Positions 3,009 through 38,482 of a DNA stretch of 64,000 nt are shown here, in pieces (position 1 is the stretch's first letter; every line of letters begins with the position of its first letter). The DNA is from an uncultured Muribaculaceae bacterium. GTDB lineage: Bacteria; Bacillota_I; Bacilli_A; RF39; UBA660. Location: contig CAYJJQ010000001.1 in NCBI GenBank assembly GCA_964370545.1, positions 25,605 to 89,604 on the forward strand, given 5' to 3'. The translations under genes and the position numbers were made by a program. The notes below the pieces were generated by a model that saw only the letters and a list, made by a program, of their open reading frames with translations, searched no databases and was not told where the DNA came from.

Positions 3009-4868
3009 ATGAAAAAAATAATTAGAAAACTTTCAAAAAGAAATAAAGCTGTCTTAATATTTTTTGGAATAACAATAGTTTCTTATATTGTTAGTTTTTC
3101 TATGTTTACAAAAAATGTGATGGGATTTACTGGGGTAGAAAATTTAGTTAGATATACCATATTAATATTTTTTGCATTTTACTTAATAATATATTTTTTT
3201 GTAGGAATATTTAGTATTATTAATAGAAAATATAAGAAAACTATTTTACTTTCTATTCTAGCACTTTTCTTTGTTGCAATATTTGTAACAGCCGTGTATT
3301 TTACAAATATACTTTTTGATGGATTATCAGGATTCGGTAGTGAAAAAGAAACGTCATATACTGCTAATCTTATTACATTAACTGGTCATGAATTAGTATC
3401 TAGCGATACTATTGGAATGATTGAAAATGATGAAGATATTGAAGGAAATGTTTTAGCAGTTAAATTATTAGAAGAAAATAATTTAGAAAATAAAATTATT
3501 TATTATACAACTTATGAAGAAATCTTAGTTGCGCTATATAATAAAGAAATAGGTGGAGCATTTTTACCGAATAATTATATAAGTATATTTAGTGCAGAAG
3601 AAGTATATTCTATGATATCAACAGAAACAATAGTAATTCATTCATATACTGAAAAAGTTAAAAATGAAAGTATTAGCGATAGTTCTAAAGGTTTCACAGA
3701 ACCGTTAACATTTTTATTTATTGGTGTAGATTCAACTGCAACAAAAATGGATGCTAATGCTGCATTTAATGGAGATACATTAATGGTAGTTACTTTTGAT
3801 CCAGAAACATTAAATACTACTATGGTTAGTATACCAAGAGATACTGTAGTACCAATAGCTTGTCAAGGTAATGCATATAATAAGATAAATTCATCAGCAG
3901 TATATGGAACTGAATGTGTAATAGATACTATTGAAAATTTAGTAGAAGTTCCAATAGATTATTATGTAAAAATAAATTTTCATGGTTTAGTAGATTTAGT
4001 TGAAGCAATAGGTGGAATAGAAGTTGATGTTGAAAAACCAACATATAATACTTATGGTGATTATAAAGTTTGTGAAGAAAATTCAGATAGAAAAAGCGGT
4101 AGTAGTTTAGTGTGTATGAATTATGGATTACAAACACTTGATGGAGAGCAAGCACTAGCGTATTCTCGTAATAGAAAGCAATATGCAAGTTCTGATTTAG
4201 CCCGCAATATACATCAACAACAAGTAGTAGAAGCTATTGTTAATAAACTAATGACCGTTAGTAGTATAGAACAAGCTGAATCTGTTTTTGATGCTATTAG
4301 TGATAACATAGTTACTAATATAGATACTGATCAAATATTTTCAGCATATGACATATTAAAAGAAATGGTGCTAGTAAGTAACGGTAATAAAATTAATCTG
4401 GAAAAATTATATTTAGAAACATATAATTTAAACTTTTATTTACCTAGTGCTAAAGCAATAAGAGCAGGTCTTGGATATTATCAAGATTCTCTTGATGATA
4501 TAATTGGTGCCATGAAAATTAATTTAAATATAGAAAAACCTGTAATACAAAAAGAATTTAGTTTTTCAGTTAACGAACCTTACGAATTAAATGTACCTGG
4601 ATCAGAATTGAAAAATGAACCAACACTTTCAGTATTATCTAGTTTTATAGGGAAAACTGAAAGTGATGCAACAACATATTGTAATCAGCAAGGATTTAAT
4701 TGTACATTTACAATTGTTGATTCTACTAGTGAAAAATATAATATAAATATAGCAGGAGGTTTAATAGGCAGTCAAAGCATGCCAACAGGATCTTTATTAC
4801 ACACAGTTAGTAACATTACATTTTATATAAATGGTCAAATAATAAATGAAGGATTACCCACAGAGTAA
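3009..4868 (+). CDS. LytR-CpsA-Psr (LCP) family cell-wall glycopolymer transferase with a C-terminal PASTA-like domain
   Basis: Several N-terminal TM helices. LCP core motifs are present: FLFIGVDS, DTLMVVTFDP, SIPRDT, KINFHGLVDLVEAIGGIEV, GEQALAYSRNRK. The C-terminus (GFNCTFTIVDSTSEKYNINIAGGLIGSQS) is PASTA-like. RBS GAGGA precedes the start. Confidence 0.65.
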   Translation: MKKIIRKLSKRNKAVLIFFGITIVSYIVSFSMFTKNVMGFTGVENLVRYTILIFFAFYLIIYFFVGIFSIINRKYKKTILLSILALFFVAIFVTAVYFTNILFDGLSGFGSEKETSYTANLITLTGHELVSSDTIGMIENDEDIEGNVLAVKLLEENNLENKIIYYTTYEEILVALYNKEIGGAFLPNNYISIFSAEEVYSMISTETIVIHSYTEKVKNESISDSSKGFTEPLTFLFIGVDSTATKMDANAAFNGDTLMVVTFDPETLNTTMVSIPRDTVVPIACQGNAYNKINSSAVYGTECVIDTIENLVEVPIDYYVKINFHGLVDLVEAIGGIEVDVEKPTYNTYGDYKVCEENSDRKSGSSLVCMNYGLQTLDGEQALAYSRNRKQYASSDLARNIHQQQVVEAIVNKLMTVSSIEQAESVFDAISDNIVTNIDTDQIFSAYDILKEMVLVSNGNKINLEKLYLETYNLNFYLPSAKAIRAGLGYYQDSLDDIIGAMKINLNIEKPVIQKEFSFSVNEPYELNVPGSELKNEPTLSVLSSFIGKTESDATTYCNQQGFNCTFTIVDSTSEKYNINIAGGLIGSQSMPTGSLLHTVSNITFYINGQIINEGLPTE

Positions 4869-5458: not shown

Positions 5459-7174
5459 ATGAAAAAAATATTATATATAATTTCTACATTAATATGTTTT
5501 TTTATGTTTGCTTCTAATGTATCAGCTGAAGTTTATAAAGTAAGAATAATTGAAAGTTATGCTAACATGAGACCGACGGCATCTACTGATGGAAAAATTG
5601 TTGAAGTATTAGAACAAGGTACTGTACATACACTTATTTCTCCTATTCCTGAAAATAATTATTATAAAATAATAAGTGCTAGTGGAAAAGAAGGCTATGT
5701 GCATGAAAATTATAGTATACAATATTTAGCGTCTGAAAATGAAACGCCTGTAACAGCATGTGAAAAATCCTTATATGAAAAAGGATTTACAGAACCATCT
5801 TATTGGCCATATTTATGCTTTTTAGAGGAAGTTCATCCAACTTGGGTATTTACACCTTTAATCACTAATTTAGATTTTGAAGATGCAGTAAAAGCTGAAA
5901 GTGCTTGTGGAACTAGTGCTACATCAAAAACAGGAAGTTACATTGACACAAGTTGCCCAAATAATTTTGCTAAAGGATGGTATCCTGCATCTCAAACAGC
6001 TGTAGCATATTACATGGATCCAAGAAATTTTTTAAATGAAAATTATATATTTCAATTCGAGCGAGTTAGTTATGATGATCGAATTGGAGATAGTTATCCT
6101 GCTATGGTTGATAATATGTTGGAAAATGCATCTTTTTATACATATCATAAAGATAAAGGTTTAAACTTATCAACAGTTATTAATGATGTAGGAAAAAATG
6201 AATCTATAAAAACCAGTCCTGTATTTATAGCAGCAAGAATGTTGCAAGAACTAGGTTCCTCAACTACCTTGTTTTCATTATATAGTGGTGTATACACAGA
6301 TGATGATTATGGTGATAAATATGTAGGCTATTTTAATTTTTATAACTGGGGAGTATCAGATACTTGTGTAGATGCTTATGGAACTGCATATTGCGGTCTT
6401 AGCACTGCTATGAGATATGAATGGAATACTGCTGAAAAAGCAATACTAGGTGGAGTCAATTCTATCGCTATCAATTATATTAACGCAAACCAAGATACAT
6501 TATATTTACAAAAATATAATGTAATGCCTGAGCTTCCAAATGAATTATATGCTCATCAGTATATGACTAATATTCATGCTCCATCAAGCGAAGGAAAAAT
6601 TATGTCAGGGGTCTATAATAGTGCAGGATTCTTAGATAATTCTTTTGAATTCTTTATACCTGTATATAATAATATGGGTGCTGAAATAACTAATGAAGGT
6701 AGCGGAGGCTCTGGTGATGAAGATGATGATCTTACTACGCTTGATATAAATACAATTATTACTAATTCTGGATATCTTAGAGATAATGGTTATTTAACGA
6801 AAATAGCTATAGGAAGTGATATTGCTAATATTATTTCTAATATAGAAAGTGCTGCAGGTAAGGGAAATGTTAGTGCCACTGATGTAGATGGAAATATAAA
6901 AACTGAAGGTATAGCGAAAACTGGAGATAAAATAACTGTGAAAAATACAACCGAAAGCATTACCATAACAATTATAATTTATGGTGATACATCAGGAGAT
7001 GGTTTAGTTAACGCACTTGATTTATTACAAGTTCAAAAACAAATATTAGGTTCATATAATTTAACTGGTATTTATGCAGAAGCAGGGGATACTTCTAAAG
7101 AAGGTAAGATTGATGCTTTAGATTTATTACAAATACAAAAACAAATATTAGGTTCATATACAATTATTCAATAA
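5459..7174 (+). CDS. secreted peptidoglycan hydrolase: SH3b domain + GH73-like glucosaminidase region + C-terminal type I dockerin
   Basis: Strong RBS AGGAGG and a signal peptide. SH3b-like N-terminus (YKVRIIESYANMRP...GYVHENY). Central region resembles mannosyl-glycoprotein endo-beta-N-acetylglucosaminidase (SPVFIAARMLQELGSS). C-terminus has two dockerin Ca-binding repeats: GDTSGDGLVNALDLLQVQKQILG and GDTSKEGKIDALDLLQIQKQILG. Confidence 0.55.
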   Translation: MKKILYIISTLICFFMFASNVSAEVYKVRIIESYANMRPTASTDGKIVEVLEQGTVHTLISPIPENNYYKIISASGKEGYVHENYSIQYLASENETPVTACEKSLYEKGFTEPSYWPYLCFLEEVHPTWVFTPLITNLDFEDAVKAESACGTSATSKTGSYIDTSCPNNFAKGWYPASQTAVAYYMDPRNFLNENYIFQFERVSYDDRIGDSYPAMVDNMLENASFYTYHKDKGLNLSTVINDVGKNESIKTSPVFIAARMLQELGSSTTLFSLYSGVYTDDDYGDKYVGYFNFYNWGVSDTCVDAYGTAYCGLSTAMRYEWNTAEKAILGGVNSIAINYINANQDTLYLQKYNVMPELPNELYAHQYMTNIHAPSSEGKIMSGVYNSAGFLDNSFEFFIPVYNNMGAEITNEGSGGSGDEDDDLTTLDINTIITNSGYLRDNGYLTKIAIGSDIANIISNIESAAGKGNVSATDVDGNIKTEGIAKTGDKITVKNTTESITITIIIYGDTSGDGLVNALDLLQVQKQILGSYNLTGIYAEAGDTSKEGKIDALDLLQIQKQILGSYTIIQ

Positions 7175-7185
7175 AAAGGAGTAAC

Positions 7186-8511
7186 ATGAAAAAAATAAAA
7201 TTAATATTATTAATAGCAATTAGTATTATTTTGATACCATATGAAGTAAATGCGGCTACTGCATCAATTTCTGTGTCATCTTCTAGCACTATTGCTCTTG
7301 GAAATACTGTAACAGTAACAGTTAAACTTTCAAGTTCAACTAAAATAGGATCTTGGGAAATGCTTCTTAACTATGATAGTAGTTATTTAAAATTAACTAG
7401 TGCTACGAGTGAAGAAAAAGGAGTTAAAATGGCCTCAGTATCTCCGACGGGAGTTACTTCTAAAACCTATACATTTAAGTTTAAAACTTTAAAAACAGGT
7501 TCTACTAAAATAAGTGTACCTAGTTATTTAGCATATGAATTTGAAGGTTTAACAAAGATGACTGTATCTTCAGGTTCTAAAACAATAACAATCAAAACTC
7601 AAGCTGATATTGAAGCAAGTTATTCAAAGGATAATGATTTAAAAGCTTTTAGTGTTGAGGGATATACTTTAAATCAAGAATTTAATAAAGATACTTTAGA
7701 ATATTCAGTAGATGTACCTGAGGGAACAGAAAAAGTAAATATTATAGCTACAAAAAATCATTCTCAAGCAACAGTATCAGGATCTGGAGAAGTTGAGGTA
7801 TCGCCTGGAGCTAATGTATTTGAAATATTAGTAAGAGCACAAAATGGTAGTGAACAAATATATAAATTAACTGTTAATGTAATTGATCAAAATCCAATTA
7901 ACGTAAAAGTAGATAATGTTAATTATACAGTAGTTAAATTAAGAGAAAGTTTAACTATGCCAGTTACATTTACAGAAACAACGGTTACTATTAATGAGTT
8001 TGAAATACCAGCATTTTATAATGAAAAATTAAAATATACGCTAGTAGGTTTAAAAGATGAATCCGGTAATATTTCATTACATATTTATGATCAAGAAAAA
8101 AAATCTTATGAATTATATAATGAAATATTATTTAATGGAATTTCACTTTTAGTAAGTGAACCCAAAGGTGAAATACCAAACGGATATACTAAGTATACTG
8201 AAACAATATTAGAAAATGAATTAACGGTATATAAAATATCAAAAGATTCTAGAACAGCATTAATTTATGGAACTAATGTGTTAACAGGAGAAGAAGGATA
8301 TTATATTATAGATACTAAAGATAATAGTATAACTATTTATGATGATGAATATATAGTAGCATTAGAAGAAAAAAATGAATTATTTATGTATATTATACTA
8401 GGATTTTCTGGAATATTATTTATACTATTTATAATTATTATTAAATTATTAAGCTCTAAGAAAAATTCTAAAAAGAAAAAAAGAGTTAAAGCTGATGAAA
8501 TTAACTATTAA
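7186..8511 (+). CDS. membrane-anchored cohesin-domain protein with a cadherin-like beta-sandwich domain
   Basis: Signal peptide. The N-terminal ~130 aa match the type I cohesin pattern (ISVSSSSTIALGNTVTVTVKLSSSTKIGSWEMLLNYDSSYLKLTS). A cadherin-like domain follows (DLKAFSVEGYTLNQEFNKDTLEYSV). C-terminal TM helix plus KKNSKKKKR stop-transfer. Confidence 0.5.
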   Translation: MKKIKLILLIAISIILIPYEVNAATASISVSSSSTIALGNTVTVTVKLSSSTKIGSWEMLLNYDSSYLKLTSATSEEKGVKMASVSPTGVTSKTYTFKFKTLKTGSTKISVPSYLAYEFEGLTKMTVSSGSKTITIKTQADIEASYSKDNDLKAFSVEGYTLNQEFNKDTLEYSVDVPEGTEKVNIIATKNHSQATVSGSGEVEVSPGANVFEILVRAQNGSEQIYKLTVNVIDQNPINVKVDNVNYTVVKLRESLTMPVTFTETTVTINEFEIPAFYNEKLKYTLVGLKDESGNISLHIYDQEKKSYELYNEILFNGISLLVSEPKGEIPNGYTKYTETILENELTVYKISKDSRTALIYGTNVLTGEEGYYIIDTKDNSITIYDDEYIVALEEKNELFMYIILGFSGILFILFIIIIKLLSSKKNSKKKKRVKADEINY

Positions 8512-9586
8512 TGAAAAAATAGGACAATTATTTATAGTTGGAATTAAAGAAAAAGGGGATATTGAAAAGGTTATTAATTTAATAACTAGTTTTCATATTG
8601 GTGGAGTAATATTATATAAAACTGCTTATGATAATTATATTGAAATGATAGAATTAATAAATAAGCTAAAAACTGCTAATAAAGATAATAAGCTACCGTT
8701 GTTTATATCCATTGATCAAGAAAATGGAAGAGTAAATAGATTTCCTAAAGATATCAATATCATAAGAAATGCAGAGAGTATTGGGAAGTGTAATAATAAT
8801 ACAATAATTAATTCTGCAAGGTTAACCGCAAAATTATTAAGTGATTCGGGTATTAATATGAACTTTGCTCCCACATTAGATTTAAATAGATATAAAAATA
8901 ATAAAGTTATAGGAAATAGGTCTTATGGTAGAGATCCTGAAAAAGTAAGCTCAATAGGAAATATAATTATAAATGAGAATATTAACAATAATATATTGTC
9001 AGTAATCAAGCATTTTCCAGGACATGGTATAGTAAAAACTGATACTCATATATTTTTACCAATAATTAATAAAAGTTCATATAAAATAGTTATGCAGGAA
9101 GATATTATTCCATTTAAAAATAACATAAAAGATAAGTGTGAGGCAATAATGGTAGGGCATTTTTTAGTGCCATCTATAGCTGGGTTAACTCCAACTTCAT
9201 TATCTAAAAATTTTGTGGATAATGAAATTAGAAAAAAATATAATTTTGAAGGGTTGATAATTACAGATAGTTTATCAATGGGTAGCGTTAGATATAGATG
9301 GGGAAAGACTGGTACTGCAATTAAAGCAATTAATGTTGGAATGGATATACTTACAGTAAAATATTATAATGGTATAGAAAAAACTCTATATAAAATAAAT
9401 GACTTAGTTAATAACAATTATATAGATGAAAAGTCAATAAATAAATCAATAAAAAGGATAGCTTTTATAAAGAAGAAATATAATATAAATGATAAACAAA
9501 TAACCGGTATTTCTAATTTAGATTCAATTAATAATGAGATCAATGCATTAAACCAAGAAATTGAGAATCAAATTGACAAAATGTAA
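8495..9586 (+). CDS. glycoside hydrolase family 3 beta-N-acetylhexosaminidase (NagZ-like)
   Basis: GH3 N-terminal motifs KIGQLFIVG, KHFPGHG and DSLSMG. Overlaps the upstream gene by 17 nt. Confidence 0.65.
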   Translation: MKLTINEKIGQLFIVGIKEKGDIEKVINLITSFHIGGVILYKTAYDNYIEMIELINKLKTANKDNKLPLFISIDQENGRVNRFPKDINIIRNAESIGKCNNNTIINSARLTAKLLSDSGINMNFAPTLDLNRYKNNKVIGNRSYGRDPEKVSSIGNIIINENINNNILSVIKHFPGHGIVKTDTHIFLPIINKSSYKIVMQEDIIPFKNNIKDKCEAIMVGHFLVPSIAGLTPTSLSKNFVDNEIRKKYNFEGLIITDSLSMGSVRYRWGKTGTAIKAINVGMDILTVKYYNGIEKTLYKINDLVNNNYIDEKSINKSIKRIAFIKKKYNINDKQITGISNLDSINNEINALNQEIENQIDKM

Positions 9587-9621
9587 CAAATATGTTATAA
9601 TTCTTATATCAGGGGGATATG

Positions 9622-9795
9622 ATGATAAGATCAAAGAGGGGTTTGGTTTTAGAAAGTGTATTAGAAATAATTTTTGGATTAGCCATTATCTTGATAACTA
9701 TTCCCATTTGGAGTGAATTTCAAGACAAAGGTTATGAAGAAGTTGTGGAAAAATACGAAGACTATGGCCAAGTTGTCTTTTATGACAACAATTAA
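9622..9795 (+). CDS. 57-aa ComGC-like type IV (pseudo)pilin mini-protein, absent from the ORF track
   Basis: RBS AGGGGG 5 nt upstream. Product is MIRSKRG/LVLESVLEIIFGLAIILITIPIW..., with Gly before the cleavage site, Glu at +5 and a hydrophobic helix. The ILITIP motif matches ComGC (ILLLITIPNV). Shorter than the track's length cutoff. Confidence 0.45.
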   Translation: MIRSKRGLVLESVLEIIFGLAIILITIPIWSEFQDKGYEEVVEKYEDYGQVVFYDNN

Positions 9796-9893
9796 ATAGG
9801 AAGTGTAAACTTCCTGTTTTTTTGTCAAATAAATTGTGTATCATTACAAAATATGTTAATATTATTATGAGTAATACTATAGAAAGGATATGC

Positions 9894-11009
9894 ATGAAAA
9901 GGCTGAAAAAAAATACTATATATTTATTTTTAGGCGTAATAGCATTTACAATAACTACTATTGGTTATTCTTATGCTATCTTTTTTAGTATAGATTCAAG
10001 CACTTTAGAACAGCAAATTTCTGCTGGAGATTTACAAGTTGCATTTAATAATTCTTCTACTTCAATAACCAGAAATTCAATGCTACCTACTAGTGATGCT
10101 GATGGCCTTGCAGCAAGTTCTGCTAGTACAATATATTTACAAAATAATGGCTCTACCGATTCAACTGCTTTTTTTACTGTAAAGTATGACTATGAATCTT
10201 TTACTTCAGATGCAGATTATACTGCTGATAGTATGCTAATACCATTAGAATTTTTAAGAGCTGCAGTATTTGTATATGATGATGTAGCAGGTCAAATGGT
10301 GCAAGCTAGTGATGTGTTTACCTTATCTGAATTACCTGTATATACTGTAGATACTTCAAATTATTATAATAATGCATACAGATTATATTTTGCAAATATA
10401 GAAAAATCAACATCTGGAAATAATGCTCAAACTTATTCAATTAAAGTTTGGCTTGATGAAAATGCACCAGAATATATAAGAGATTACAAATTATATTTAA
10501 ACGTAAATGTAATAGCACAAGTTAAAGATTCAACTAGTAATTATAATTTAAGTGGCACACTTAATGTAAATAGCTCTCCTGTAGCAAATGCTACTATAAG
10601 TTTAATGAATGGTGCATTAAAAGCTACGACTGATGCAAATGGTAATTATACCTTTAATGGAATACCAGAAGCATTATATACACTAGATATTACTACATCT
10701 ACCACTAAATATGAAACAACTTTCAAATTAGAAGAAGGGGATGAACTAAAAAATAGTACGTATGTGAATACTCATACTGTTAATGGTAATACTACATTTA
10801 GTAGTTTAGCGTATACATATGGAACCTCACTTCATAAATTAAAAGAAATTAATAATATATTTGATAATACTAATGAAATTGTTTTAACTGATGGTCAGGT
10901 ATTAACATTGCCTAAAGTATACATTATCACAGGTGGTAATAATTTAGATATAAATGTAAATATTGATGTTGATAATGAAGGTGTTATCAACTTGAGTTTA
11001 GGAGGTTAG
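9894..11009 (+). CDS. secreted TasA/camelysin-like protein with SipW-cognate signal peptide plus a carboxypeptidase-regulatory-like (CarbopepD_reg) domain
   Basis: Internal ATG at 9894 with AAAGGA RBS gives MKRLKKNTIYLFLGVIAFTITTIGYSYAIFFSIDSS, which is a SipW-type signal (GxxxAxF). NGNYTFNGIPEALYTLD is a beta-sandwich motif. The N-domain is paralogous to the two following genes. Confidence 0.5.
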   Translation: MKRLKKNTIYLFLGVIAFTITTIGYSYAIFFSIDSSTLEQQISAGDLQVAFNNSSTSITRNSMLPTSDADGLAASSASTIYLQNNGSTDSTAFFTVKYDYESFTSDADYTADSMLIPLEFLRAAVFVYDDVAGQMVQASDVFTLSELPVYTVDTSNYYNNAYRLYFANIEKSTSGNNAQTYSIKVWLDENAPEYIRDYKLYLNVNVIAQVKDSTSNYNLSGTLNVNSSPVANATISLMNGALKATTDANGNYTFNGIPEALYTLDITTSTTKYETTFKLEEGDELKNSTYVNTHTVNGNTTFSSLAYTYGTSLHKLKEINNIFDNTNEIVLTDGQVLTLPKVYIITGGNNLDINVNIDVDNEGVINLSLGG

Positions 11010-11012
11010 TAT

Positions 11013-11639
11013 ATGAGGCAAAGAAGAATGTACGTTATACCTACAATTTTACTAGTCATTATGATGCTATGTACAGCAACATTTACATATGCATACTTTA
11101 CAGCACCGAGCTCAGAGTCGTATAGTGAATATGACATAACATCTACTAAAACTGGTTTTGCTTATGCAGAATCTGGATCAGAAATAGATTTACTTGTATC
11201 TGGAGATGTAATGCAAGAACCATTACAGAATAATAATGTAGCTGCAGCAACAGCTGTAAATGATGATCCGATTACAGTAACACTAAATACTTCAGTAAAT
11301 GGAGGAACTCTAACTTGTACTTATGATATTTATTATATACCGGATACTCCCTTTATGAATAGTATAGAAAATACAACAAATGAAAAAGAATTTACAATAA
11401 AAGGTGTTTCTGATAAAGGTTCATTTGCAACTGAAATAAATTTAGGAAATGTAACTGAAAAAATTATGTTAGCTGAAAATGTAAATATAGCGTTAAGTGG
11501 AGTAAGCAAAGTATTAGTACAATCATGGACTTTTACAGCAAGCTTTTACAACCAAACTTTTGTCCAAGATGATAATGCGGGAAAAGAATTTGGAGGTAGA
11601 ATTGTTTTAGAAGATTTAGATTGTGAAAATACTTTCTAA
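11013..11639 (+). CDS. TasA/camelysin-family secreted protein (SipW-cognate signal peptide)
   Basis: RBS GGAGG. N-terminus MRQRRMYVIPTILLVIMMLCTATFTYAYFTAPS matches the TasA/CalY GGGTFAFF[ST]D pattern. 208 aa, similar in size to CalY. Paralog of the next gene (conserved TCTYDIYY and WTFTASFYN...DNAGKEFGG motifs). Confidence 0.55.
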   Translation: MRQRRMYVIPTILLVIMMLCTATFTYAYFTAPSSESYSEYDITSTKTGFAYAESGSEIDLLVSGDVMQEPLQNNNVAAATAVNDDPITVTLNTSVNGGTLTCTYDIYYIPDTPFMNSIENTTNEKEFTIKGVSDKGSFATEINLGNVTEKIMLAENVNIALSGVSKVLVQSWTFTASFYNQTFVQDDNAGKEFGGRIVLEDLDCENTF

Positions 11640-11710
11640 AATGACAAAAAAAGACTTGAAAAAAAATAATTTATTTGTTACTATGTATATATAGTAGAGA
11701 AGGAGATAAC

Positions 11711-12358
11711 ATGGAAAGAAAACAAACATTATTGTTAACAGTAATAGCAGTAGCTACTTTACTAGTGGCAGTTGTGGGAGCAACGTTCGCGTTCTTCACG
11801 GCTTCAGGAACAGGATCTGCTGATAGTGAGGTAACAGTTACTACTAGTTCAATAGATACAGTTAATACGACTGCTTCTAACTTAACTTTACAAGTAGGAT
11901 TAACAGATATGCTTTTAGCTAATGGTAGAGATGATTATTCTGCTAGAAAACAAGCTACAAGTACTATTACAATGTCTGCTGGTACTGGAACAGGTGGAGG
12001 TACAAATACATGTACTTATGACTTATCATATACACCTAATTCAGGACAAGATTTTACTCAATCTGCAGCTAACACTGGTGGATTAAACGAGTTAACTATT
12101 TCAGCTGTTGCAACTAACCCTGGTTCAGGAGTAAGTAGTGATAATGCTGTAACAGAATTTTCACTTGATGGCATTACTACAGAGCAAACACTAATCGATG
12201 GTGGAACATTTGCTGTTAGTGGTGTAAGTAATACTGATGTTTTAACTTGGACATTTACTGTAACATTTTATAACTTAGCAGTTGATCAAAGTGATAATGC
12301 TGGTGCGACATTTGGTGGAACACTATCATTTAAAAACGTTACTTGCGTAAACAGTTAA
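11711..12358 (+). CDS. TasA/camelysin-family secreted protein (SipW-cognate signal peptide), paralog of the previous gene
   Basis: AGGAGA RBS and ATG 11711 give MERKQTLLLTVIAVATLLVAVVGATFAFFTASG. The C-terminal motifs TCTYDLSY and WTFTVTFYN...DNAGATFGG are shared with 11013..11639. Confidence 0.55.
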   Translation: MERKQTLLLTVIAVATLLVAVVGATFAFFTASGTGSADSEVTVTTSSIDTVNTTASNLTLQVGLTDMLLANGRDDYSARKQATSTITMSAGTGTGGGTNTCTYDLSYTPNSGQDFTQSAANTGGLNELTISAVATNPGSGVSSDNAVTEFSLDGITTEQTLIDGGTFAVSGVSNTDVLTWTFTVTFYNLAVDQSDNAGATFGGTLSFKNVTCVNS

Positions 12359-12370
12359 TATTAAAAAGTA

Positions 12371-12397
12371 AAGATTGAGCAATCAATCTTTTTTTTA
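12371..12397 (+). terminator. rho-independent terminator
   Basis: AGATTGA-GCAA-TCAATCT stem-loop followed by T6 directly after the stop at 12358. Confidence 0.6.
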
Positions 12398-12438: not shown

Positions 12439-13368
12439 ATGAAAAAGGTATTAGTCACTGGAGCAGCTGGAGCAATTGGCATTCAAACTGTTAAATATTT
12501 ATTAAGTGAAGGTAAGTATGAAATAACTATACTAGATTTAAAAAATTCAAGATCTCATAAAATACTAAAAAAATATAAAAATAGAGTTAATATTATCTAT
12601 GGAGATATATGTAATAGAGTATTAATGGAAGCCTTAATAAAAGATCATGATTATGTTATTCATTTAGCATCATCTTTATTTCCTTTAGGCCAACATAAAA
12701 AAAGTTTATCTAAAATTATAGAACATGATGCAGTTGAAAATATAGTTAGATCAATTAACTACTATAACCCCGCTTGTCATTTAATTTATGCATCAACTAC
12801 TTCAGTATATGGTGATGTAGAAAGTGCGTCTATTAAAAATAAAATACAACCAAAAACTGATGAATATTATACATATTATAAATATAAATCTGAACAATTG
12901 ATAACTTCTAAACTTAAACATTATACTATTGTTAGAGTGCCTTTAGTAGTAAATGGAAATAAAGTACATAACTTTATATATAATATAAAAAATAGTAGTA
13001 ATATTAGTTTTATTACAGATATAGATGCTGGATACTTTTTTACCAAGATACTAGATCATATTAAGGCATCTAATAAGAAAACAATTAATATTAAAAGTTC
13101 TTATAATGAAGAATTAACTTATAAAGATTTAAGAAATAAAATAATAAAAGCAACTGGTTTTGAAATAAAATTAATTTTAAATAAAATATTTGTAGAAAAT
13201 AACTTTTATTCACCAAGTCTTACTGATACAGAAACTTATGTTAATAAATTAAATTATCAAATAGATTCTTTAGAAAATTGTTTGAAAAGATTGAAAAGAA
13301 AATCTAAAAATAAATATATAAACTTAGCTTTAGGAAAAATGTACTTTTTAATTAGAGGCACAAAATGA
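12439..13368 (+). CDS. NAD-dependent epimerase/dehydratase (SDR) family protein
   Basis: Rossmann motif VLVTGAAGAIGIQTVKYLL at the N-terminus; 309 aa. Confidence 0.5.
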   Translation: MKKVLVTGAAGAIGIQTVKYLLSEGKYEITILDLKNSRSHKILKKYKNRVNIIYGDICNRVLMEALIKDHDYVIHLASSLFPLGQHKKSLSKIIEHDAVENIVRSINYYNPACHLIYASTTSVYGDVESASIKNKIQPKTDEYYTYYKYKSEQLITSKLKHYTIVRVPLVVNGNKVHNFIYNIKNSSNISFITDIDAGYFFTKILDHIKASNKKTINIKSSYNEELTYKDLRNKIIKATGFEIKLILNKIFVENNFYSPSLTDTETYVNKLNYQIDSLENCLKRLKRKSKNKYINLALGKMYFLIRGTK

Positions 13369-17804: not shown

Positions 17805-17849
17805 GTCATAAAACTTTTTTTCATATATTATATGGAAAGGAGTTTTTTT

Positions 17850-18098
17850 ATGAACCGAGAATATTATAAACCAAGACCAGTACCAATACCAGTTAGAAGA
17901 TATGGATATAAAGAAAATGAAGGTGATAGATTTTTTTTAGCAGCTCCATTTTTATTTGGAGCACTAGCAGGAGGAGCTATAGCAGCATCATCTAGACCAA
18001 GACCAGTATATGTTTATCCACCAGCACAACCGTATTATAATCCGGCAGTGCCATATGCACATTCTAGTTATTCATATTACTATCCTACATATCGTTAA
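17850..18098 (+). CDS. small Tyr/Pro/Ala-rich hypothetical protein (spore-coat-like composition)
   Basis: AAAGGAG RBS 7 nt upstream of ATG 17850. Product MNREYYKPRPVPIPVRRYGY...YYNPAVPYAHSSYSYYYPTYR. Convergent with the SEDS gene and overlaps it by 14 nt. Confidence 0.35.
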   Translation: MNREYYKPRPVPIPVRRYGYKENEGDRFFLAAPFLFGALAGGAIAASSRPRPVYVYPPAQPYYNPAVPYAHSSYSYYYPTYR

Positions 18099-19926: not shown

Positions 19927-20364
19927 ATGAATAAAACAACTTCTTCAAATTGCATAAATGATATTTTAAATGTTATTTTAGTATTACAAGAAAATGCATG
20001 TCCTGAAAATTGCTTAGATACATGTGATAGACCTGTTCTAGGCGGAGGGCCAAACTGTTTAGCTTGTAATACAAGACCAGTAATGTTATATACATGTTGT
20101 GGAAATGGTGTTCCTTGGAGTATGCCAACAAGTAAAGATTCAATTCAAAATTGTGAAGGTGCTACTGTTACAGATAACTGTTCAACTGTATTTAGACTTG
20201 AAAAACTTGATTGTAACTGTGCTACATTTAGAGTACTAATTGCAAATCCAGATACTACTAGTTTATATCCATACGTAGGAACAAATTCTTTCTTTACAAT
20301 GGATACAGAATGTTTATGTTCCCTAAGATGTTTAAATGATACATACGTTGAATGTATATTCTAA
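19927..20364 (+). CDS. CotY/CotZ/ExsY-like cysteine-rich spore coat / exosporium protein
   Basis: 145 aa with 17 Cys. VFRLEKLDCNCATFRVLIANPD matches the CotY/CotZ core (FFRVEKL.DCCATL.IL.P). Confidence 0.55.
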   Translation: MNKTTSSNCINDILNVILVLQENACPENCLDTCDRPVLGGGPNCLACNTRPVMLYTCCGNGVPWSMPTSKDSIQNCEGATVTDNCSTVFRLEKLDCNCATFRVLIANPDTTSLYPYVGTNSFFTMDTECLCSLRCLNDTYVECIF

Positions 20365-20427: not shown

Positions 20428-23400
20428 ATGAAAAAACTTAAGGAAATATTTAATAAAAATAAAATATTAGTAATCGTTATGGCAGTTTCAATTGTTCTTA
20501 TAAGTGGAGTGTCTTTTGCATACTTTGCTGGTTTGATTGGCGCTCCGGCTATAACTGATTTAGATGTGACAAGTCAAAAGGGAAATACTATAGTATTTAC
20601 CCCAGGAACTGCCATTAATTTATATGCTACAGAAGATAACTTTGGACAAACACATACTAGTTTAAGTGGACAGACTATTTCAACTGCTGAATATACATCT
20701 TCTAAAACTGAATTAAATCCTGAAAAATATAATGTTTATTTTGTTATAAATGTAAATGATTTTGAATATACAACTGCATCCGAGGAAACAGAAATACTTT
20801 TAAAAGTAACTAATCCAGAAGGTGTAGAAGTAACTAGCATTACTGGATTTACTCACGATACAGTTACGGATAATGTTTCAGGAGATACATTATCAGGTTT
20901 TGATGTAACTACATTTATGGGTATAGTGCCTATAGCAATAGATTATGAAATAGATTCAATAAATAAGATTAAAACTACTCAACAGTGGAAAGTAGAGCTT
21001 ACTTTTGTTAACCTTGCTACTAAACAAAATGATAATACTAAAAAGACTTTTGAAGGTAAATTAATTTTGCAACAGGGTCCATATGAACCAACACTAGCAG
21101 AATCTATTATATTTGATAATTATGATAATGATGATTTTATATATCATTCAGATAAAAACGAAGACTCAGCAGGAGATAATAGTTTTAGATTCTCAGGTGC
21201 TAACCCTGATAACTATGTTACATTTAATGATGAATCATGGAGAATAATAGGTATCTTTGATGATAAATTAAAACTAATAAGAGAAACTCCATTAGATACA
21301 CTTATGGCATTTGATACAGGTAACTCTAATGACTTTGCAACATCTGATATAAATACTTATTTAAATACTACTTTTTATAATGCCCTTAATTCAGATGCTA
21401 AAAATTTAACGGTATCATCAAAACTTAATATAGGCCCTATATCTACTAATACGGGAGGAGAATATCATAAAACTCCAGGTGTAATAGCTAGAAAAGAAAG
21501 TTTTTTAAAAACATCTAGTTCATACAAAGTTGGTTTAATGAATGCAAGTGATTATTTATTTGCAGCATCAGAAACATATCATACTTTAAATAACTATGAT
21601 GCTACTGATACTAATAACGATTATGCAGATAATGCAAATATGATAGCTACTAATTGGATGTATATATTTGATACATATACAGCATCAGATTTCGAGTGGA
21701 CAGTAACACCAGCAACAGATGGTAATAGTTTAATGCAAATAAGAGCAGTAGGGAACACTAATTCTAACTATGCAACTAATAATGGATTAGCAGCTAGACC
21801 AACTGTTTATATTACAGGTGATGCCAGATTATCAATTGGTACTGGAACATCTGCAGATTCATATATTCTAAGTCTTCCATTGCAAGGTGCCTCTAAACAC
21901 CTAGTAGAAAATCATGACGCAGGTGAAGGATTATACCAACATACAGCAGATCTAGCTAACGGAGCAGGAGATAATAACTATAGATACTCAGGACCTGATT
22001 CGCTAGTAAAAAACTATGTAACATTTAATGATGAAATGTGGAGAATAATAGGTATCTTTGATGGTAAATTAAAACTAATAAAAGAAACATCAATAGGAAC
22101 ATATGAGTTTGATCCAGGAAATGATAACTCATGGGCCGATGATGGTGGAGGAGTAGAAGGAAATCAACTCCTAAATAACTATTATTTTAATAGTACAGTA
22201 GCCCCAAATCTCTTAGCAGATTGTGGCGGCTCTGGTAGAGGAAGTTGTGATTTCACATCAACGGGACTAGATGCAACTGCAAGAGCAATGGCAGAAACAT
22301 CAACATGGTACTTAGGAGCTCCTGATACAAATAATCAAACAGCAAATGCATTTTATAAAGAAGAAAGAGGAAGTGCAACAACAGATGGAACACATATAAC
22401 AACAGAGGCAAATATAGGATTATTATATATGAGTGATTATGGATATGCAGCATCAAGTAATGCATGGACAACAAACCTAGTTCGTTATGATACAAACTCA
22501 ATACCTGCAAATAACTGGATGTTTAGTGGATTATATGAGTGGTCAATATCGCCTAATTTGTCTGGCTCTAGCAGCGTGTTGGGTGTAAGCAGCAGCGGTG
22601 ATGCGAACAACTACTATGCCAGAGGTGGGTCTGCGTGGCGCCCAACCTTATACCTGAAATCAAATGTAGAAATCATAGGAGGATCAGGAACTGAAAGTGA
22701 TCCGTTTAAAATAGGTTTAGATGCTAATAAATACTTAATAGATAGTCATGGAGCAGAAGAAGGGCTTTACCAGCATACAGCAGATTTAACAAATGGAGCA
22801 GGAGATAATAATTATAGATATTCAGGACCTGATTCATTAGTAAAAAACTATGTAACATTTAATGATGAAATGTGGAGAATAATAGGAGTTTTTGATGGAA
22901 ATGTAAAACTAATAAAAGAAACATCAATAGGAACATATGAATTTGATCCAGGAGATGATAACTCATGGGCCGATGATGGTGGAGGAGCAGAAGGAAATCA
23001 ACTACTCAATAACTATTATTTTAATAGTGCAGTAGCGCCAAATTTGTTAGCAGATTGTGGTAATACAAGTAGAGGAAGTTGCGACTTCACATCAACAGGA
23101 CTAGACGCAACAGCAAGATTAATGGTAGAAACATCAACATGGTACTTAGGGGCTCCTGATACATATAATCAAACAGCAAATGCATTTTATAATGACGAAA
23201 GAGGAAGCGTGACATCTACAGGAACCCATATAACAACAGAGGCAAATATAGGATTAATGTATGTAAGTGATTATGGATATGCAGCCTCAAGTAATGCATG
23301 GACAACAAATTTAATTGATTATAATACTAACTCAATACTAGCAAGTAACTGGATGTGTAGTGGAGTTTTCGAGTGGTCAATATCGCCTTATTTGTCTCGC

Positions 23401-23556
23401 TCTAACTTCGTGTGGTATGTTTACGACAACGGTGATGCGGACAGCTACTACGCCAGCTATGGGAGTGCGTGGCGCCCAACCTTATACCTGAAGGCCGAAA
23501 CGAAGATTGTAGGAGGAACGGGAACTGAAAGTGATCCGTTCCAGTTAGGACTATAA
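20428..23556 (+). CDS. large secreted protein: SipW-cognate signal + TasA-like N-domain + three ~270-aa repeat domains (last two near-identical)
   Basis: N-terminus MKKLKEIFNKNKILVIVMAVSIVLISGVSFAYFAGLIGAP is a SipW-type signal. Residues ~190-215 (QWKVELTFVNLATKQNDNTKKTFEGKLIL) are paralogous to the C-terminal motif of the small TasA-like proteins. Repeats: A ~21130-21900, B 21901-22735, C 22736-23556. B and C end in GC-rich patches. The start may be GTG 20422 or ATG 20428. Confidence 0.6.
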   Translation: MKKLKEIFNKNKILVIVMAVSIVLISGVSFAYFAGLIGAPAITDLDVTSQKGNTIVFTPGTAINLYATEDNFGQTHTSLSGQTISTAEYTSSKTELNPEKYNVYFVINVNDFEYTTASEETEILLKVTNPEGVEVTSITGFTHDTVTDNVSGDTLSGFDVTTFMGIVPIAIDYEIDSINKIKTTQQWKVELTFVNLATKQNDNTKKTFEGKLILQQGPYEPTLAESIIFDNYDNDDFIYHSDKNEDSAGDNSFRFSGANPDNYVTFNDESWRIIGIFDDKLKLIRETPLDTLMAFDTGNSNDFATSDINTYLNTTFYNALNSDAKNLTVSSKLNIGPISTNTGGEYHKTPGVIARKESFLKTSSSYKVGLMNASDYLFAASETYHTLNNYDATDTNNDYADNANMIATNWMYIFDTYTASDFEWTVTPATDGNSLMQIRAVGNTNSNYATNNGLAARPTVYITGDARLSIGTGTSADSYILSLPLQGASKHLVENHDAGEGLYQHTADLANGAGDNNYRYSGPDSLVKNYVTFNDEMWRIIGIFDGKLKLIKETSIGTYEFDPGNDNSWADDGGGVEGNQLLNNYYFNSTVAPNLLADCGGSGRGSCDFTSTGLDATARAMAETSTWYLGAPDTNNQTANAFYKEERGSATTDGTHITTEANIGLLYMSDYGYAASSNAWTTNLVRYDTNSIPANNWMFSGLYEWSISPNLSGSSSVLGVSSSGDANNYYARGGSAWRPTLYLKSNVEIIGGSGTESDPFKIGLDANKYLIDSHGAEEGLYQHTADLTNGAGDNNYRYSGPDSLVKNYVTFNDEMWRIIGVFDGNVKLIKETSIGTYEFDPGDDNSWADDGGGAEGNQLLNNYYFNSAVAPNLLADCGNTSRGSCDFTSTGLDATARLMVETSTWYLGAPDTYNQTANAFYNDERGSVTSTGTHITTEANIGLMYVSDYGYAASSNAWTTNLIDYNTNSILASNWMCSGVFEWSISPYLSRSNFVWYVYDNGDADSYYASYGSAWRPTLYLKAETKIVGGTGTESDPFQLGL
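21901..23556 (+). repeat. intragenic tandem direct repeat, 2 x ~835 bp (~90% identical)
   Basis: 21901-22735 and 22736-23556 encode ENHDAGEGLYQHTADL...SAWRPTLYLK twice. The differences cluster in a ~63-nt patch near each repeat end. Confidence 0.85.
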
Positions 23557-23649: not shown

Positions 23650-24033
23650 ATGAATAGTAAAGGATTTACATTAATAGAACTACTTGCTGTGATAGTTGTT
23701 CTTGCTATAGTTGGTACTCTATCAATAGTTATATATAGCGGGTTTAGTGATTCTATTAAAGAAAAAGAATATGAAACATTAATTAATTTATATAAATCAT
23801 CTATAAAAGTGTATGTTGAGGATAATGATTATGATAATGTAACTATTGTTCTTCAAGAACTTATTGATACTGATTATGTAAGTGCTCCGGCTGATGGAAT
23901 AATAATTAATCCAATCAATGAAAGTTATAAACTTAATTGTTTAAAGTTTAATGTAATTAAGGAAAATAATGAGTATATAGTTTCTTATGATGAAACAAGT
24001 ACTAATGTTTTAATAGAAGATAAATGTAATTAA
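23650..24033 (+). CDS. type IV pilin / ComGC-like pseudopilin
   Basis: RBS AAAGGAG. Product is MNSKGFTLIELLAVIVVLAIVGTL..., a canonical class III prepilin leader with Gly before the cleavage site, Phe at +1 and Glu at +5. Confidence 0.75.
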   Translation: MNSKGFTLIELLAVIVVLAIVGTLSIVIYSGFSDSIKEKEYETLINLYKSSIKVYVEDNDYDNVTIVLQELIDTDYVSAPADGIIINPINESYKLNCLKFNVIKENNEYIVSYDETSTNVLIEDKCN

Positions 24034-37000: not shown

Positions 37001-37235
37001 AAATAATTCACTAAAATGTATTGATTCTGGAAGTTATGAAAACGTAATGTGTTATAGTACATTCTTTGATGATTACTTAGAACATTCAACATATAATACA
37101 TTATTTGTATTTGGTAATGACAGAGATGATATTGGAACATACTTTCAATTATATACAGGCGCTTCTATACCAGGAGGATCTACTGGAATTGGTGGACCAT
37201 CTTGGAAACTTAATGAGGAGGTGGAGTTAGGATGA
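34032..37235 (+). CDS. large (1067 aa) secreted Cys-rich protein, possible adhesin or pilus-associated protein
   Basis: Signal peptide. More than 40 Cys. No recognised catalytic motif. Stop overlaps the next gene by 4 nt, suggesting translational coupling into the Tad-like genes. Confidence 0.4.
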   Translation: MKKISYLIVFVLSIFIFSNVNAETFNVTHKDLKGPSGLYLGDMDDSSYNKTFYITVYNANYLGTNYSAFCLDPGLRTNTTYTTSVDLSSSSRRGLEEYDYGLKTILINGYNINNTTTTNPVTGSNLTADEFKVATTIALRSYVLAWGSFNSSSVLTEEKSAYINETALWNYNAAEDGIFDTQRFEWISNEKIGLNSSKNFDDYDSSINFNSSSEVGEGVFQVARELYYDGMDAATKYATTSQLSPDVVNTSRDVTNDDDSITRTITLTPTNFNGKTGTLTSLRVSGVSGVSYKISKNGSESTLTSFSNVTLDENTKIIITFTVTPQTGKNVDYNLNYSFNHEDLDSGRFILLGEGQANVQRLLLYVPGDTSKVFNDEFTIVGDVACKTEIDIPGACSNYDDEHFTGEINGPEDIKNCVIDGQDEAGNSYQAETCDDNIIPSDSNDYCQVYCTEDFEIEFPGMRPVNSGRYFDIGAQIVATKSCYTSEIDHDQFDEDIENAINAVIAAYNRYSEASAVVEGLNSSYIGTKKYDDKVTYFSYDAGRPEKTKQECTESIKDGETVETCRTVVTQSYIAPHCDRDGSGTHDANECGDRIVPSKSYTTYYISNGVLQSRTENTSSKTYDGDDGNTYSNGIMSSCNDRVSSCDNGSIPSSVTSAANSEKSSAKTALDNAINAYNAIINDYKLCSDWDYSYDSVPEITYSYESKYDNLLSGSDRKMDSDSSRLDVDTYECDENYENCGTLDKETVSYITCTTSGCTTTSYQLNRDAGIVKKTGDKTIDYETPEIFYQYWPSGEVFIEDEGYVNSSNTGTVSTVDGLPVEIEHNAGAYDFVFTIDGLGEYYDDCGEDGRIINESDPSGTVLEKNETAFEGEYVCQYLVNCPECEFDVTYIPDPDECTNCLFTAGYLQAHYRPTSVGSLTANDREMGWNWNRNDGTFLGEKAGDTLDDIINNGDSVYLGTPLLTVNLTADLAADIRMYNDREEKNGGYKNNSLKCIDSGSYENVMCYSTFFDDYLEHSTYNTLFVFGNDRDDIGTYFQLYTGASIPGGSTGIGGPSWKLNEEVELG

Positions 37236-37642
37236 GTAATGCGTATTGGGGATACTGGTTAGTATTACTTGGTGTATTTATTGTAGTTGTATTATTATTA
37301 ATACAAAACGTAACTACAGCTAACGTACAAAATGCTTCACTTATTAAAGAAATATCTGAAGCAGCAATGATTGATTCAGTAGATTATGCATATTATCGTG
37401 ATTACGGTGAAATAAAAATTAATGCTGAAAAATTTGAAGAAACATTTACAAGAAGAATGGCAGAAATAGTTACTGGTGGAACGACTTATAAAATTGAATT
37501 TCATAGAATTTATGAGTCTCCTCCAGCTATTGCATTAGATGTATCTAGTAGATCTAGTACATTTAATATATTTGGTGATGAAACAACTTTTGATTTAACT
37601 GATAGAGTAGAAGCTATTCTTGAAGGAAGTATAAAAGGATAA
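37232..37642 (+). CDS. small single-TM protein (TadE/RcpC-like accessory candidate)
   Basis: RBS GAGGAGG. N-terminal TM WLVLLGVFIVVVLLLI then a ~110-aa soluble domain. Confidence 0.3.
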   Translation: MSNAYWGYWLVLLGVFIVVVLLLIQNVTTANVQNASLIKEISEAAMIDSVDYAYYRDYGEIKINAEKFEETFTRRMAEIVTGGTTYKIEFHRIYESPPAIALDVSSRSSTFNIFGDETTFDLTDRVEAILEGSIKG

Positions 37643-37653
37643 AAGGAGGATAA

Positions 37654-38445
37654 ATGAAAAATTTTACGGGAGGACTAAAAAGGTTTTTATCTAATAAAAA
37701 CACAATAACGATATTAGCTGTTATTGTAGGTATTTTAGTATTATGGTTTGCTTATAATATGCGAGTGCAACAAGCTATTAAACCTCAATTAATTCCATAT
37801 GCCTTAGAAAGAATAGGGGCAACTGAACCTATTACTACTGAGAATATTGGATATATAGAAGTTAATGCTGATATGTTATCAAAAAGTGATATTATTACAA
37901 GTGCTGCTTTATTAGATGGTAAATTTATTACTACAGGAACATCTATACCTAAAGGTGGATTCTTTCATCAATCGCAAGTTGTTGAAGGTGAAACTCTTCC
38001 TAATACAGTGTTTGATCATATTGAAGATGGACATGGTTTATTCTCATTAAGAGTAGATAATGATTCTACTTACGGTAATTCAATTTATCCTGGGGATAGA
38101 ATAGATTTATATGTTAAATATGTAGATGAATTAGGAATAATAGTTTTTGGTAAATTTATAGAAAGTATAGAAGTGTTAGCAGTTAGGGATTCTCGTCAAG
38201 ATGATGTTTTTGATAGTGAAGATCCTTCTAATCCTTCGTTACTGTTATTCTCTTTACCAGAAGATACTAATAACCCAGAAAATAATTTATTTTACTGGTT
38301 AACACAAGCAAGTTTTATTCCTGGATTAGAAATAATACCTGTTCCTAGAAATAAAGCTTATACAGAAGAAGATGCAGCAACTAAAATAACTAGTTATGAA
38401 ATTCAAGCATATATTGAACTTTATACTAGATCTGCACTTCAATAA
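37654..38445 (+). CDS. CpaB/RcpC-like pilus assembly protein candidate (single N-terminal TM + periplasmic domain)
   Basis: RBS AAAGGAGGA. The TM (ITILAVIVGILVLWFAY) followed by a ~230-aa domain fits the CpaB architecture. No motif-level confirmation. Confidence 0.3.
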   Translation: MKNFTGGLKRFLSNKNTITILAVIVGILVLWFAYNMRVQQAIKPQLIPYALERIGATEPITTENIGYIEVNADMLSKSDIITSAALLDGKFITTGTSIPKGGFFHQSQVVEGETLPNTVFDHIEDGHGLFSLRVDNDSTYGNSIYPGDRIDLYVKYVDELGIIVFGKFIESIEVLAVRDSRQDDVFDSEDPSNPSLLLFSLPEDTNNPENNLFYWLTQASFIPGLEIIPVPRNKAYTEEDAATKITSYEIQAYIELYTRSALQ

Positions 38446-38482
38446 AATAAAAGAATAAAAGAATAAAAAAGGTGGTGAACGT

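Follow-up and report, generated by a model that had tools for sequence, protein, structure and literature searches.

Extracellular fibres that come with a dedicated type I signal peptidase (SPase I) have already been described in the TasA, BsaA, AbpA/AbpX and tafi systems (PMC9674648, PMC11580942, PMC11821415, PMC12337348, bioRxiv 10.64898/2026.01.04.697558), and CanA belongs to the same fibre superfamily (bioRxiv 10.64898/2026.01.04.697558). An SPase I with many transmembrane segments and a DUF5305 protein form the accessory set of the AbpX and tafi loci (bioRxiv 10.64898/2026.01.04.697558; PMC12337348; PMC11821415), and in BsaA and TasA a disordered donor-strand segment follows the signal (PMC11580942, PMC9674648). 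Here we analyse a locus in a 64-kb stretch of DNA from an uncultured bacterium, hereafter the window (64,000 nucleotides, positions 25,605 to 89,604 of contig CAYJJQ010000001.1, assembly GCA_964370545.1), in which a small membrane protein and three larger proteins, g1, g2 and g3, are encoded in one cluster and a fourth, g4, is encoded apart from it. The genes display paralogy, a signal motif in the register of TasA, a modelled TasA fold in the N-domain of g1, synteny across genomes and, in some relatives, linkage to SipW-type and DUF5305 genes. We judge with moderate confidence that the small membrane protein, g1, g2, g3 and the unlinked g4 are subunits of a Sec-exported extracellular fibre of the TasA class, dependent on SipW and built by donor-strand complementation.

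Signal and domain structure of g1 to g4

At the N-terminus of all four proteins, basic residues precede a hydrophobic stretch whose end reads [ST]-[FY]-A/[YFI]-F, where the slash marks the predicted cut: ...TIGYSYA/IFFS in g1, ...ATFTYA/YFTA in g2, ...VGATFA/FFTAS in g3 and ...SGVSFA/YFAG in g4. The full motif closes an N-terminal hydrophobic stretch in no other open reading frame (ORF) of the window, a loose match alone (VSFSMF) being present in ORF 3009-4868. When the g3 family was aligned by hhalign with TasA of B. subtilis, the signal alone was aligned, in exact register (GATFA/FFT with GGTWA/AFN), and the known TasA cleavage site T-W-A/A-F falls on the motif of the g proteins. The TasA query is 100% identical to PDB entry 8aur, the chain of which starts at A28 and confirms the start of mature TasA.

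Conservation of the motif was examined in an alignment of 116 g3-family sequences (A1; the g1 family was aligned separately as A2). Ala27, at position -1, is present in 116/116 and position -3 is always Ser or Thr. The signal (residues 6-29) is 89% identical to that of g3 and the mature domain 30%, and column conservation is 91% in the hydrophobic region (h-region) against 47% in the mature domain, an extreme conservation of the signal that is partly an ascertainment effect, both searches having been seeded by exact words. Related loci contain 151 family ORFs, of which 115 have the canonical signal and 36 are paralogs with other h-regions; in 148 of the 151, and even where the h-region varies, the residues at -3 and -1 are small and an aromatic pair comes next. 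Because paralogs vary the h-region yet keep the small -3 and -1 residues, we read the motif as a cleavage site. The 19-bit curated cutoff of TIGR04088 was not reached by any of the four proteins (g3 9.5 bits, E 1.1; g1, g2 and g4 without a match), nor by three JGI-named g3 homologs (16.3-17.8 bits); the model is matched at E<=1 by 31 of the 116 g3-family members, best 3e-4, and by no g1-family member at E<=0.1.

The AlphaFold2 (AF2) model of g1 (predicted local distance difference test score, pLDDT, 90.4) gives its N-domain the TasA fibre fold. In a Foldseek search of the PDB with the N-domain model, signal helix included, the top match was the TasA fibre 8aur_A (E 1.5e-4, prob 1.00, TMq 0.46), and CanA of Pyrodictium (9hdi) was second best. 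An hhalign comparison of the g1 N-domain family with TasA gave P 0.0017 over 72 columns, with the signal end and the motifs T-G-x-L (SGTL), P-x-SD (PGD) and N-x-G-s-l (NNGSL) in register. The g1 N-domain, and not g3, matched a TasA-type jellyroll or immunoglobulin-like β-sandwich. An exhaustive phmmer search with residues 1-215 returned 191 cluster representatives at E<=1e-3, many of them stand-alone proteins of 190-250 residues; among 114 relatives of the domain, LysM is clear in five, DUF6273 is carried by two, and PF12389 (Peptidase_M73) is matched by three at E<=0.01 (best 3.5e-4). None of g1 to g4 matches PF12389 at E<=1. BLASTP detects no similarity between g1 and g3, which have in common the signal type and a weak relation at profile level.

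The mature part of g3 opens with a 20-residue Ser/Thr-rich segment bearing a conserved V-T-V-T-T strand motif and continues as a nine-strand β-sandwich with a conserved Cys pair. The corresponding AF2 model (pLDDT 87.3) consists of a helix (residues 3-27), a low-confidence segment (30-48) and the sandwich; the V-x-V-x-T segment just past the cleavage site is undocked on the monomer (pLDDT 44-60). This conserved, undocked segment we take as a donor-strand signature, because it matches the description given for BsaA and TasA. Within the 116 sequences Y103, E127, N188, Q193 and C212 are invariant, T45 is kept in 111, a Cys at 101 or 102 accompanies Cys212 in every member, and no Lys is invariant. 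At least 1486 homologs of g3 were found at E<=1e-3 in a database clustered at 90%; among the matches listed none has a Pfam domain and all are unnamed or 'hypothetical', save a few JGI entries named 'predicted ... peptide with SipW-like signal peptide'.

Two further members of this family are encoded in the window. The paralog g2 is 30% identical to g3 over its full length (E 5e-19) and has the TCTYD and WTFT..FYN..DNAG..FGG motifs in common with it; its orthologs form a separate group. In g4, residues 10-212 align with g3 (E 8e-5), the C-terminal motif included, and the N-domain so defined matches many family members of 210-230 residues in other genomes, down to E 8e-19. An earlier reading of the window, made from its letters and ORFs (the sequence-only reading), had proposed a common signal type for the four proteins, g2 and g3 as paralogs with those C-terminal motifs, a carboxypeptidase-regulatory-like domain in g1 (here a Pfam match at E 1.8e-8) and a giant protein, of 1042 residues, whose first ~215 residues belong to the family; all of these hold, though g1 is no sequence paralog of g2 or g3. 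Its wider proposal of a TasA-class fibre family stands in part, since g2, g3 and the g4 N-domain are paralogs and there is a link to the TasA class, and fails in part, the protein with the modelled TasA fold being g1, which that reading had set apart from the two small paralogs. An hhalign comparison of A1 with A2 (P 1.2e-4, 195 co-linear columns) is weak, and in the AF2 models of g1 and g3 helices and strands follow one another in nearly the same order and at nearly the same spacing. Given this profile alignment and the matching order of secondary structure, g3, g2 and the g4 N-domain probably form a divergent branch of the TasA-class fold.

The three large repeats of g4 are unequal, R2 and R3 being 80% identical and R1 and R3 31% (E 9e-30), and g4 is absent at the syntenic position in two close relatives, L001 and L005. 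Directly 3' of g4, at 23650-24033, lies a gene for a canonical type IV prepilin (MNSKGFTLIELL; TIGR02532, PF07963), and in L005 the slot 3' of the g4 position holds a 668-residue GFTLTELL pilin. We considered a conserved pairing of g4 with a type IV pilin but rejected it: in L005 the pilin stands without g4, and in L001 both are missing.

A separate observation concerns NF042931 ('SAG1386/EF1546 family surface-associated protein'), which is weakly matched by 60 of the 116 g3-family members (best E 4.6e-5), far below its 80-bit cutoff and over a span made up of the signal and the ~60 residues that open the mature part. SAG1386/EF1546 may be a further related surface-protein family, of streptococci and enterococci; the literature on it was uninformative.

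Related loci, signal peptidase genes and cluster layout

A genome scan found relatives in 346 stretches, from which 80 loci were kept, all of them in uncultured Bacilli-type metagenome-assembled genomes (MAGs) with titles such as 'Bacilli bacterium', 'Mycoplasma sp. CAG:472', 'Candidatus Onthocola' and 'uncultured Tenericutes'. A syntenic block, g1-(g2)-g3-epimerase-patatin-YebC, recurs among them, with homologs of g1 in 45, of g2 in 25 and of the epimerase in 36 of the 80 loci. Because it is syntenic in many genomes, the arrangement of the cluster is not due to chance. The small ORF lies directly 5' of g1 homologs in the eight closest loci L001-L006, L010 and L011 (tblastn, E 6e-12 to 1e-3); it has no Pfam match, and its product is possibly an assembly or anchor factor. 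We also considered the small ORF as a prepilin and rejected this, because the Gly is not kept among the orthologs. The closest relatives of the window (L001-L007, L011 and L058) are deposited, like the window itself, as 'uncultured Muribaculaceae bacterium' MAGs. Their housekeeping genes (TyrS, YebC, CotZ) are 75-85% identical to those of the Bacilli-like window, whose G+C content is ~26%, and these titles look like mislabelled taxonomy.

In some relatives genes of the SipW type adjoin the family. In L031 one lies directly 5' of the g1 and g3 homologs, in L075 one lies 5' of two g3 homologs, and in L079 the distance is 7 kb; four ORFs scanned in L031 and L075 match TIGR02228 at 78-83 bits (cutoff 51.85). 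The order in L031, on one strand, is sipW, a 406-residue protein with TasA-like motifs, the g1 homolog and the g3 homolog. That in L075 is a fusion of an SPase I with multiple transmembrane segments, DUF5305 (E 1.7e-15), an 848-residue protein, two g3 homologs and a further protein, the hydrophobic N-terminal segment of which ends in GATFSY. Next to further copies of the sipW module stand proteins whose signal is of this type, DUF6273 proteins among them. PDB searches with the 190-residue (L075) and 406-residue (L031) proteins adjoining SipW-type genes returned nothing.

The module itself is conserved in L031 (1261-7742), L081 (3288-9782) and L083 (3231-9813), where two SipW-type genes, one fused to a C-terminal extension of ~500 residues, flank a protein of ~508 residues and a DUF2357 protein. 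A membrane segment lies at the N-terminus of the former. As DUF2357 recalls McrC, the two may form an McrBC-like pair; a protein of ~405 residues with TasA-like motifs comes after the module. The 848-residue protein of L075 (7369-9915), placed between DUF5305 and the g3 homologs, opens with a related signal (VGYAVYNQGLNLTG) and carries a Listeria-Bacteroides repeat at its C-terminus; residues ~549-657 are weakly Hint/intein-like, below threshold.

In the window, four co-oriented genes (the small ORF, g1, g2 and g3) occupy the interval between a GH3 gene and the epimerase gene (Table 1); the ORFs and coordinates of g1 to g4 agree with the sequence-only reading. The start of g2 is 4 nucleotides past the stop of g1. 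One predicted promoter stands 5' of the small ORF, and a strong ribosome-binding site (GAAGGAGA) lies between the second promoter-like site and g3. An Rfam scan of the cluster and its upstream region found no riboswitch or other RNA family.

Table 1. Coordinates of the cluster, of g4 and of associated signals within the window
Feature	Position	Strand	Remarks
GH3 gene	8495-9586		5' border of the cluster
Sigma-70-type promoter	9573..9601	+	TTGACA, 17 nucleotides, TG-TATAAT (extended -10), 12/12 matches; consensus match only
Small ORF, 58 residues, single-pass membrane protein	9619..9795	+	MMIRSKRGLVLESVLEIIFGLAIILITIPIW...; from translation
Terminator-like hairpin and T-run 3' of small ORF	9794..9819	+	Fold -17.1 kcal/mol, z -6.25
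g1, 371 residues	9894..11009	+	Predicted cleavage S-Y-A28/I
g1 N-domain, TasA fold by model	9978-10538 (residues ~29-215)	+	AF2 model and Foldseek
g1 CarboxypepD_reg / prealbumin-like domain	10551-10775 (residues ~220-294)	+	Pfam E 1.8e-8, residues 224-283
g1 C-terminus, weakly LysM-like	residues 299-340	+	Pfam, sub-threshold
g2, 208 residues	11013..11639	+	g3 paralog, divergent h-region; predicted cleavage T-Y-A27/Y
Promoter-like site just 5' of g3	11656..11684	+	TTGAAA, 17 nucleotides, TG-TACTAT (extended -10); consensus match only
g3, 215 residues	11711..12358	+	Ultra-conserved signal; predicted cleavage T-F-A27/F
Intrinsic-terminator-like hairpin and T-run closing the cluster	12371..12396	+	AAGATTGA-GCAA-TCAATCTT; fold -9.7 kcal/mol, z -3.86
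Epimerase gene	12439-13368		3' border of the cluster
g4, 1042 residues	20428..23556	+	Signal S-F-A31/Y
g4 N-domain, g3 family (first ~215 residues)	20428-21072	+	BLASTP
g4 repeats R1, R2 and R3 (~275 residues each)	21073-21897, 21898-22737, 22738-23553	+	Weakly DUF6273-like, Pfam E 3.3e-4

Just 5' of the cluster, at 5459-8511, a dockerin-bearing gene (SH3_3 and Dockerin_1, E 5e-12) adjoins one for a membrane-anchored cohesin / cadherin-like protein, a pair that suggests a minimal cohesin-dockerin surface display. At 17832-18098 an 88-residue Pro/Tyr-rich protein (…PPAQPYYNPAVPYAHSSYSYYYPTYR), kept beside an FtsW/SpoVE-family gene in relatives, may be a coat or wall protein. Further away, at 37232-43790, is a Tad/Flp-like pilus locus with DUF5411 (E 2.6e-46), a weak RcpC/CpaB match, a T2SSE-family ATPase (38483-39571, E 3.7e-28), two polytopic membrane proteins, an 87-residue Flp-like prepilin candidate (41363-41626) and two TadE-like small proteins.

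Proposed assembly and alternative explanations

The mechanism we propose is modelled on TasA (PMC9674648), BsaA (PMC11580942) and tafi (PMC11821415). The precursors would be exported by Sec and enter the membrane through the N-terminal signal, to be cut after the invariant Ala by an archaeal/endoplasmic reticulum (ER)-type, SipW-like peptidase that would be encoded elsewhere in this genome. The cut would release a flexible N-terminal segment, in g3 FFTASGTGSADSEVTVTT, and the freed segment with V-T-V-T-T would insert as donor strand into the β-sandwich of the neighbouring subunit; we infer cleavage, polymerisation by donor-strand exchange and the subunit roles alike. The gene for g3 has its own promoter-like site, strong ribosome-binding site and terminator, and g3 would for this reason be the major fibre subunit, with g2 as a minor or adapter subunit. 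A role like that of TapA or TafF, as anchor near the wall or as nucleator, would fall to g1, and that of an alternative or variable adhesive tip, with a pilin-like N-domain and three large repeats, to g4.

Several results weigh against this explanation. The SPase I serine-box motif was found in none of the six frames of the 64-kb window, and tblastn of the window with SipW-type proteins from a relative returned nothing, which agrees with the sequence-only reading that sipW is missing here; a search for SipW homologs returned no protein from the 206,801-bp contig to which the window belongs, the rest of the genome being out of reach of these searches, and among the related loci an archaeal/ER-type SPase I gene lies within 10 kb in only 3 of 80. 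Foldseek with the g3 model found nothing in the PDB at E<=1e-3, and no TasA, AbpA or CanA; the best matches are weak generic jellyrolls (E>=5e-3), namely Bd1399, CBM61, TNF ligands, C1q-like proteins and Ena2A/3A, all with template modelling (TM) scores of 0.2-0.3. Generic tail-fibre and C1q-like jellyrolls were all that the viral library BFVD yielded, and the g3-family profile searched against PDB sequences found no TasA, giving non-significant matches alone (a kinesin and archaeal pilin helices). The profile links are weak, with hhalign probabilities of 16-55%, and g2, g3 and g4 fall below every curated threshold for TasA or a SipW signal. A signal of 89% identity carried on mature parts of 30% identity is, moreover, odd for a segment that is merely discarded. 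The proposal that g2 and g3 are themselves TasA/camelysin members accordingly finds no support, PF12389 being unmatched, TIGR04088 below cutoff and TasA missing from both profile and Foldseek searches; the two checks suggested with it came out the same way, profile hidden Markov models of the four proteins giving no TasA or camelysin match and none over the TIGR04088 cutoff, and AlphaFold on the small paralog g3 giving generic jellyrolls and no match to TasA.

These features of the signal invite an explanation without cleavage, in which g1 to g4 are type II membrane proteins retained by a signal anchor and showing a stalk and a jellyroll or adhesin domain, maybe as TNF- or C1q-like trimers, with no polymerisation. 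The h-region of g3 is near-invariant relative to the mature domain (91% against 47%), as for a functional transmembrane helix, the AF2 helix runs unbroken through residue 27 of g3 and gives way to a disordered stalk, the structural matches of g3 include TNF-ligand, C1q-like and CBM jellyrolls, and the window is without a peptidase gene. However, paralogs free to vary the h-region nevertheless keep [ST]-[FY]-A/[YF]-F, in register with the proven TasA site, and SipW-type genes adjoin homologs in L031 and L075. The modelled TasA fibre fold of g1 and the weakness of every one of the g3 matches also speak against an anchor, which we consider unlikely.

The constrained signal could instead mark the g3 family as a distinct fibre class, in which the signal serves as a membrane-embedded assembly handle or the subunits are covalently locked; this we think distinctly improbable. 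Such a handle might be recognised by the 58-residue membrane protein or by a dedicated peptidase complex. A lock could form by an inter-subunit bond between Cys101/102 and Cys212, by a Thr45-Gln193 ester, or by an Asn188 isopeptide catalysed by Glu127. If true, a covalent lock would be an 'exchange-and-lock' chemistry of a new type, in a fibre with a wide distribution among uncultured gut Bacilli.

A sporulation-specific fibre, either a spore-surface appendage or a coat-associated structure of the Ena or CotN kind, is more doubtful still. A CotZ-like gene does lie at 19927-20364 (Pfam E 9.5e-11), as the CotY/Z-like gene noticed nearby in the sequence-only reading, and together with an FtsW/SpoVE-family gene (its homolog annotated PF01098) it stands between the cluster and g4. 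In addition the name under which TasA was first described, spore coat-associated protein N, is the molecule name of PDB 5of1, the conserved Cys pair of g3 is reminiscent of disulfide-linked Ena subunits, and Ena2A and Ena3A appear among the weak Foldseek matches of g3 (9i0y, 8pdz; E 0.05-0.07, prob 0.25-0.41). However, these Ena matches are non-significant, the promoter-like sites found are of the sigma-70/sigma-A type, the CotZ gene is 8 kb from the cluster with housekeeping genes (YebC, TyrS) between, and g1 to g3 are syntenic with epimerase, patatin and YebC, not with coat genes. The earlier suggestion of a spore-surface fibre had the CotZ-like gene as its sole basis and drew no support from anything tested.

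Very improbable, finally, is a non-canonical pilin class that keeps the N-terminal helix as filament core and uses type IV or Tad assembly: although the g3 profile weakly matches the N-terminal helices of two archaeal type IV pilins, 6nav (E 5.5) and 6w8x (E 8.8), a canonical prepilin gene lies directly 3' of g4, a Tad-like locus (37-44 kb) is present in the window and export of C. perfringens BsaA/BsaC requires type IV pilus proteins (PMC11580942), those matches are non-significant, the pilin occupies the same slot in L005 without g4 so that the pairing is not conserved, and g1 to g4 have no prepilin-peptidase site G/FxxxE, the conserved g3-family N-terminus MEKKNTxLLTV lacking Gly at -1 and Glu at +5, whereas the gene at 23650-24033 has it.

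Comparison with known fibre systems

If the cluster does encode a TasA-class fibre, several consequences follow. Donor-strand fibres of the TasA class are an emerging matrix and adhesion system of bacteria and archaea, with examples from cultured Bacillus, Clostridium and archaea, and the cluster would bring uncultured low-GC gut Bacilli, a large group, into the class. A family of at least 1486 clusters (90% identity) would gain a first functional hypothesis, with experimental handles in the invariant cleavage motif, the Cys pair, five other invariant or near-invariant residues and a candidate tip adhesin. The peptidase gene would, moreover, stand apart from the genes of its substrates, a point of consequence for genome mining by sipW adjacency.

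The small subunits, N-terminal connector and conserved cysteines of the B. cereus Ena1/2/3 fibres (DUF3992) have counterparts here in small jellyroll subunits of similar plan, and a sporulation gene is found near the cluster. However, Ena subunits bear no SipW-type signal and none of g1 to g4 matches DUF3992. More is shared with BsaA/BsaB/BsaC of C. perfringens (sipW-bsaABC, 'exchange-and-lock', PMC11580942): a disordered segment after the signal as the proposed donor strand, small paralogs with a large accessory protein, gut Firmicutes as hosts and type IV pilin genes nearby. Unlike the Bsa system, this one has no VWA protein and its sipW would be unlinked; the N-E-K isopeptide triad is not evident in the g3 family, in which E127 and N188 are invariant and no Lys is.

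The cluster resembles TasA/TapA/SipW of B. subtilis (tapA-sipW-tasA) and CalY of B. cereus in a signal that ends in small-aromatic-Ala followed by an aromatic residue in the TasA register, in the modelled fold of the g1 N-domain with its SGTL, PGD and NNGS motifs, and in the presence of several paralogous subunits, one of them a larger accessory protein. It differs in that no sipW lies in cis and no Peptidase_M73 member in the window, in that g2 and g3 form a separate, unannotated family with a Cys pair, and in possessing an extra small membrane protein and a 1042-residue subunit.

With AbpA, AbpX, CanA and tafi (PMC9245690, PMC11821415, PMC12337348, bioRxiv 10.64898/2026.01.04.697558), in contrast, no sequence homology to the pilins is detectable, the window contains neither an SPase I nor DUF5305, and the signals are of the Sec and not the Tat type. 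The proposed division into major pilin, minor pilin(s), two-domain tip and anchor is nevertheless shared with these systems, the SPase I with multiple transmembrane segments and DUF5305 upstream of the g3 homologs in L075 repeat the AbpX-type architecture, and CanA is the second-best structural match of g1. The view that this is not a characterised system is therefore right as regards the sequences, all of them unannotated, and wrong as regards the kind, which is known from TasA, BsaA, AbpA/AbpX and tafi. What is new is a sequence family without a curated model, with a Cys pair, invariant polar residues and an unusually constrained signal, and, in addition, the conserved small membrane protein, the presumed separation of the peptidase from its substrates and the host group.

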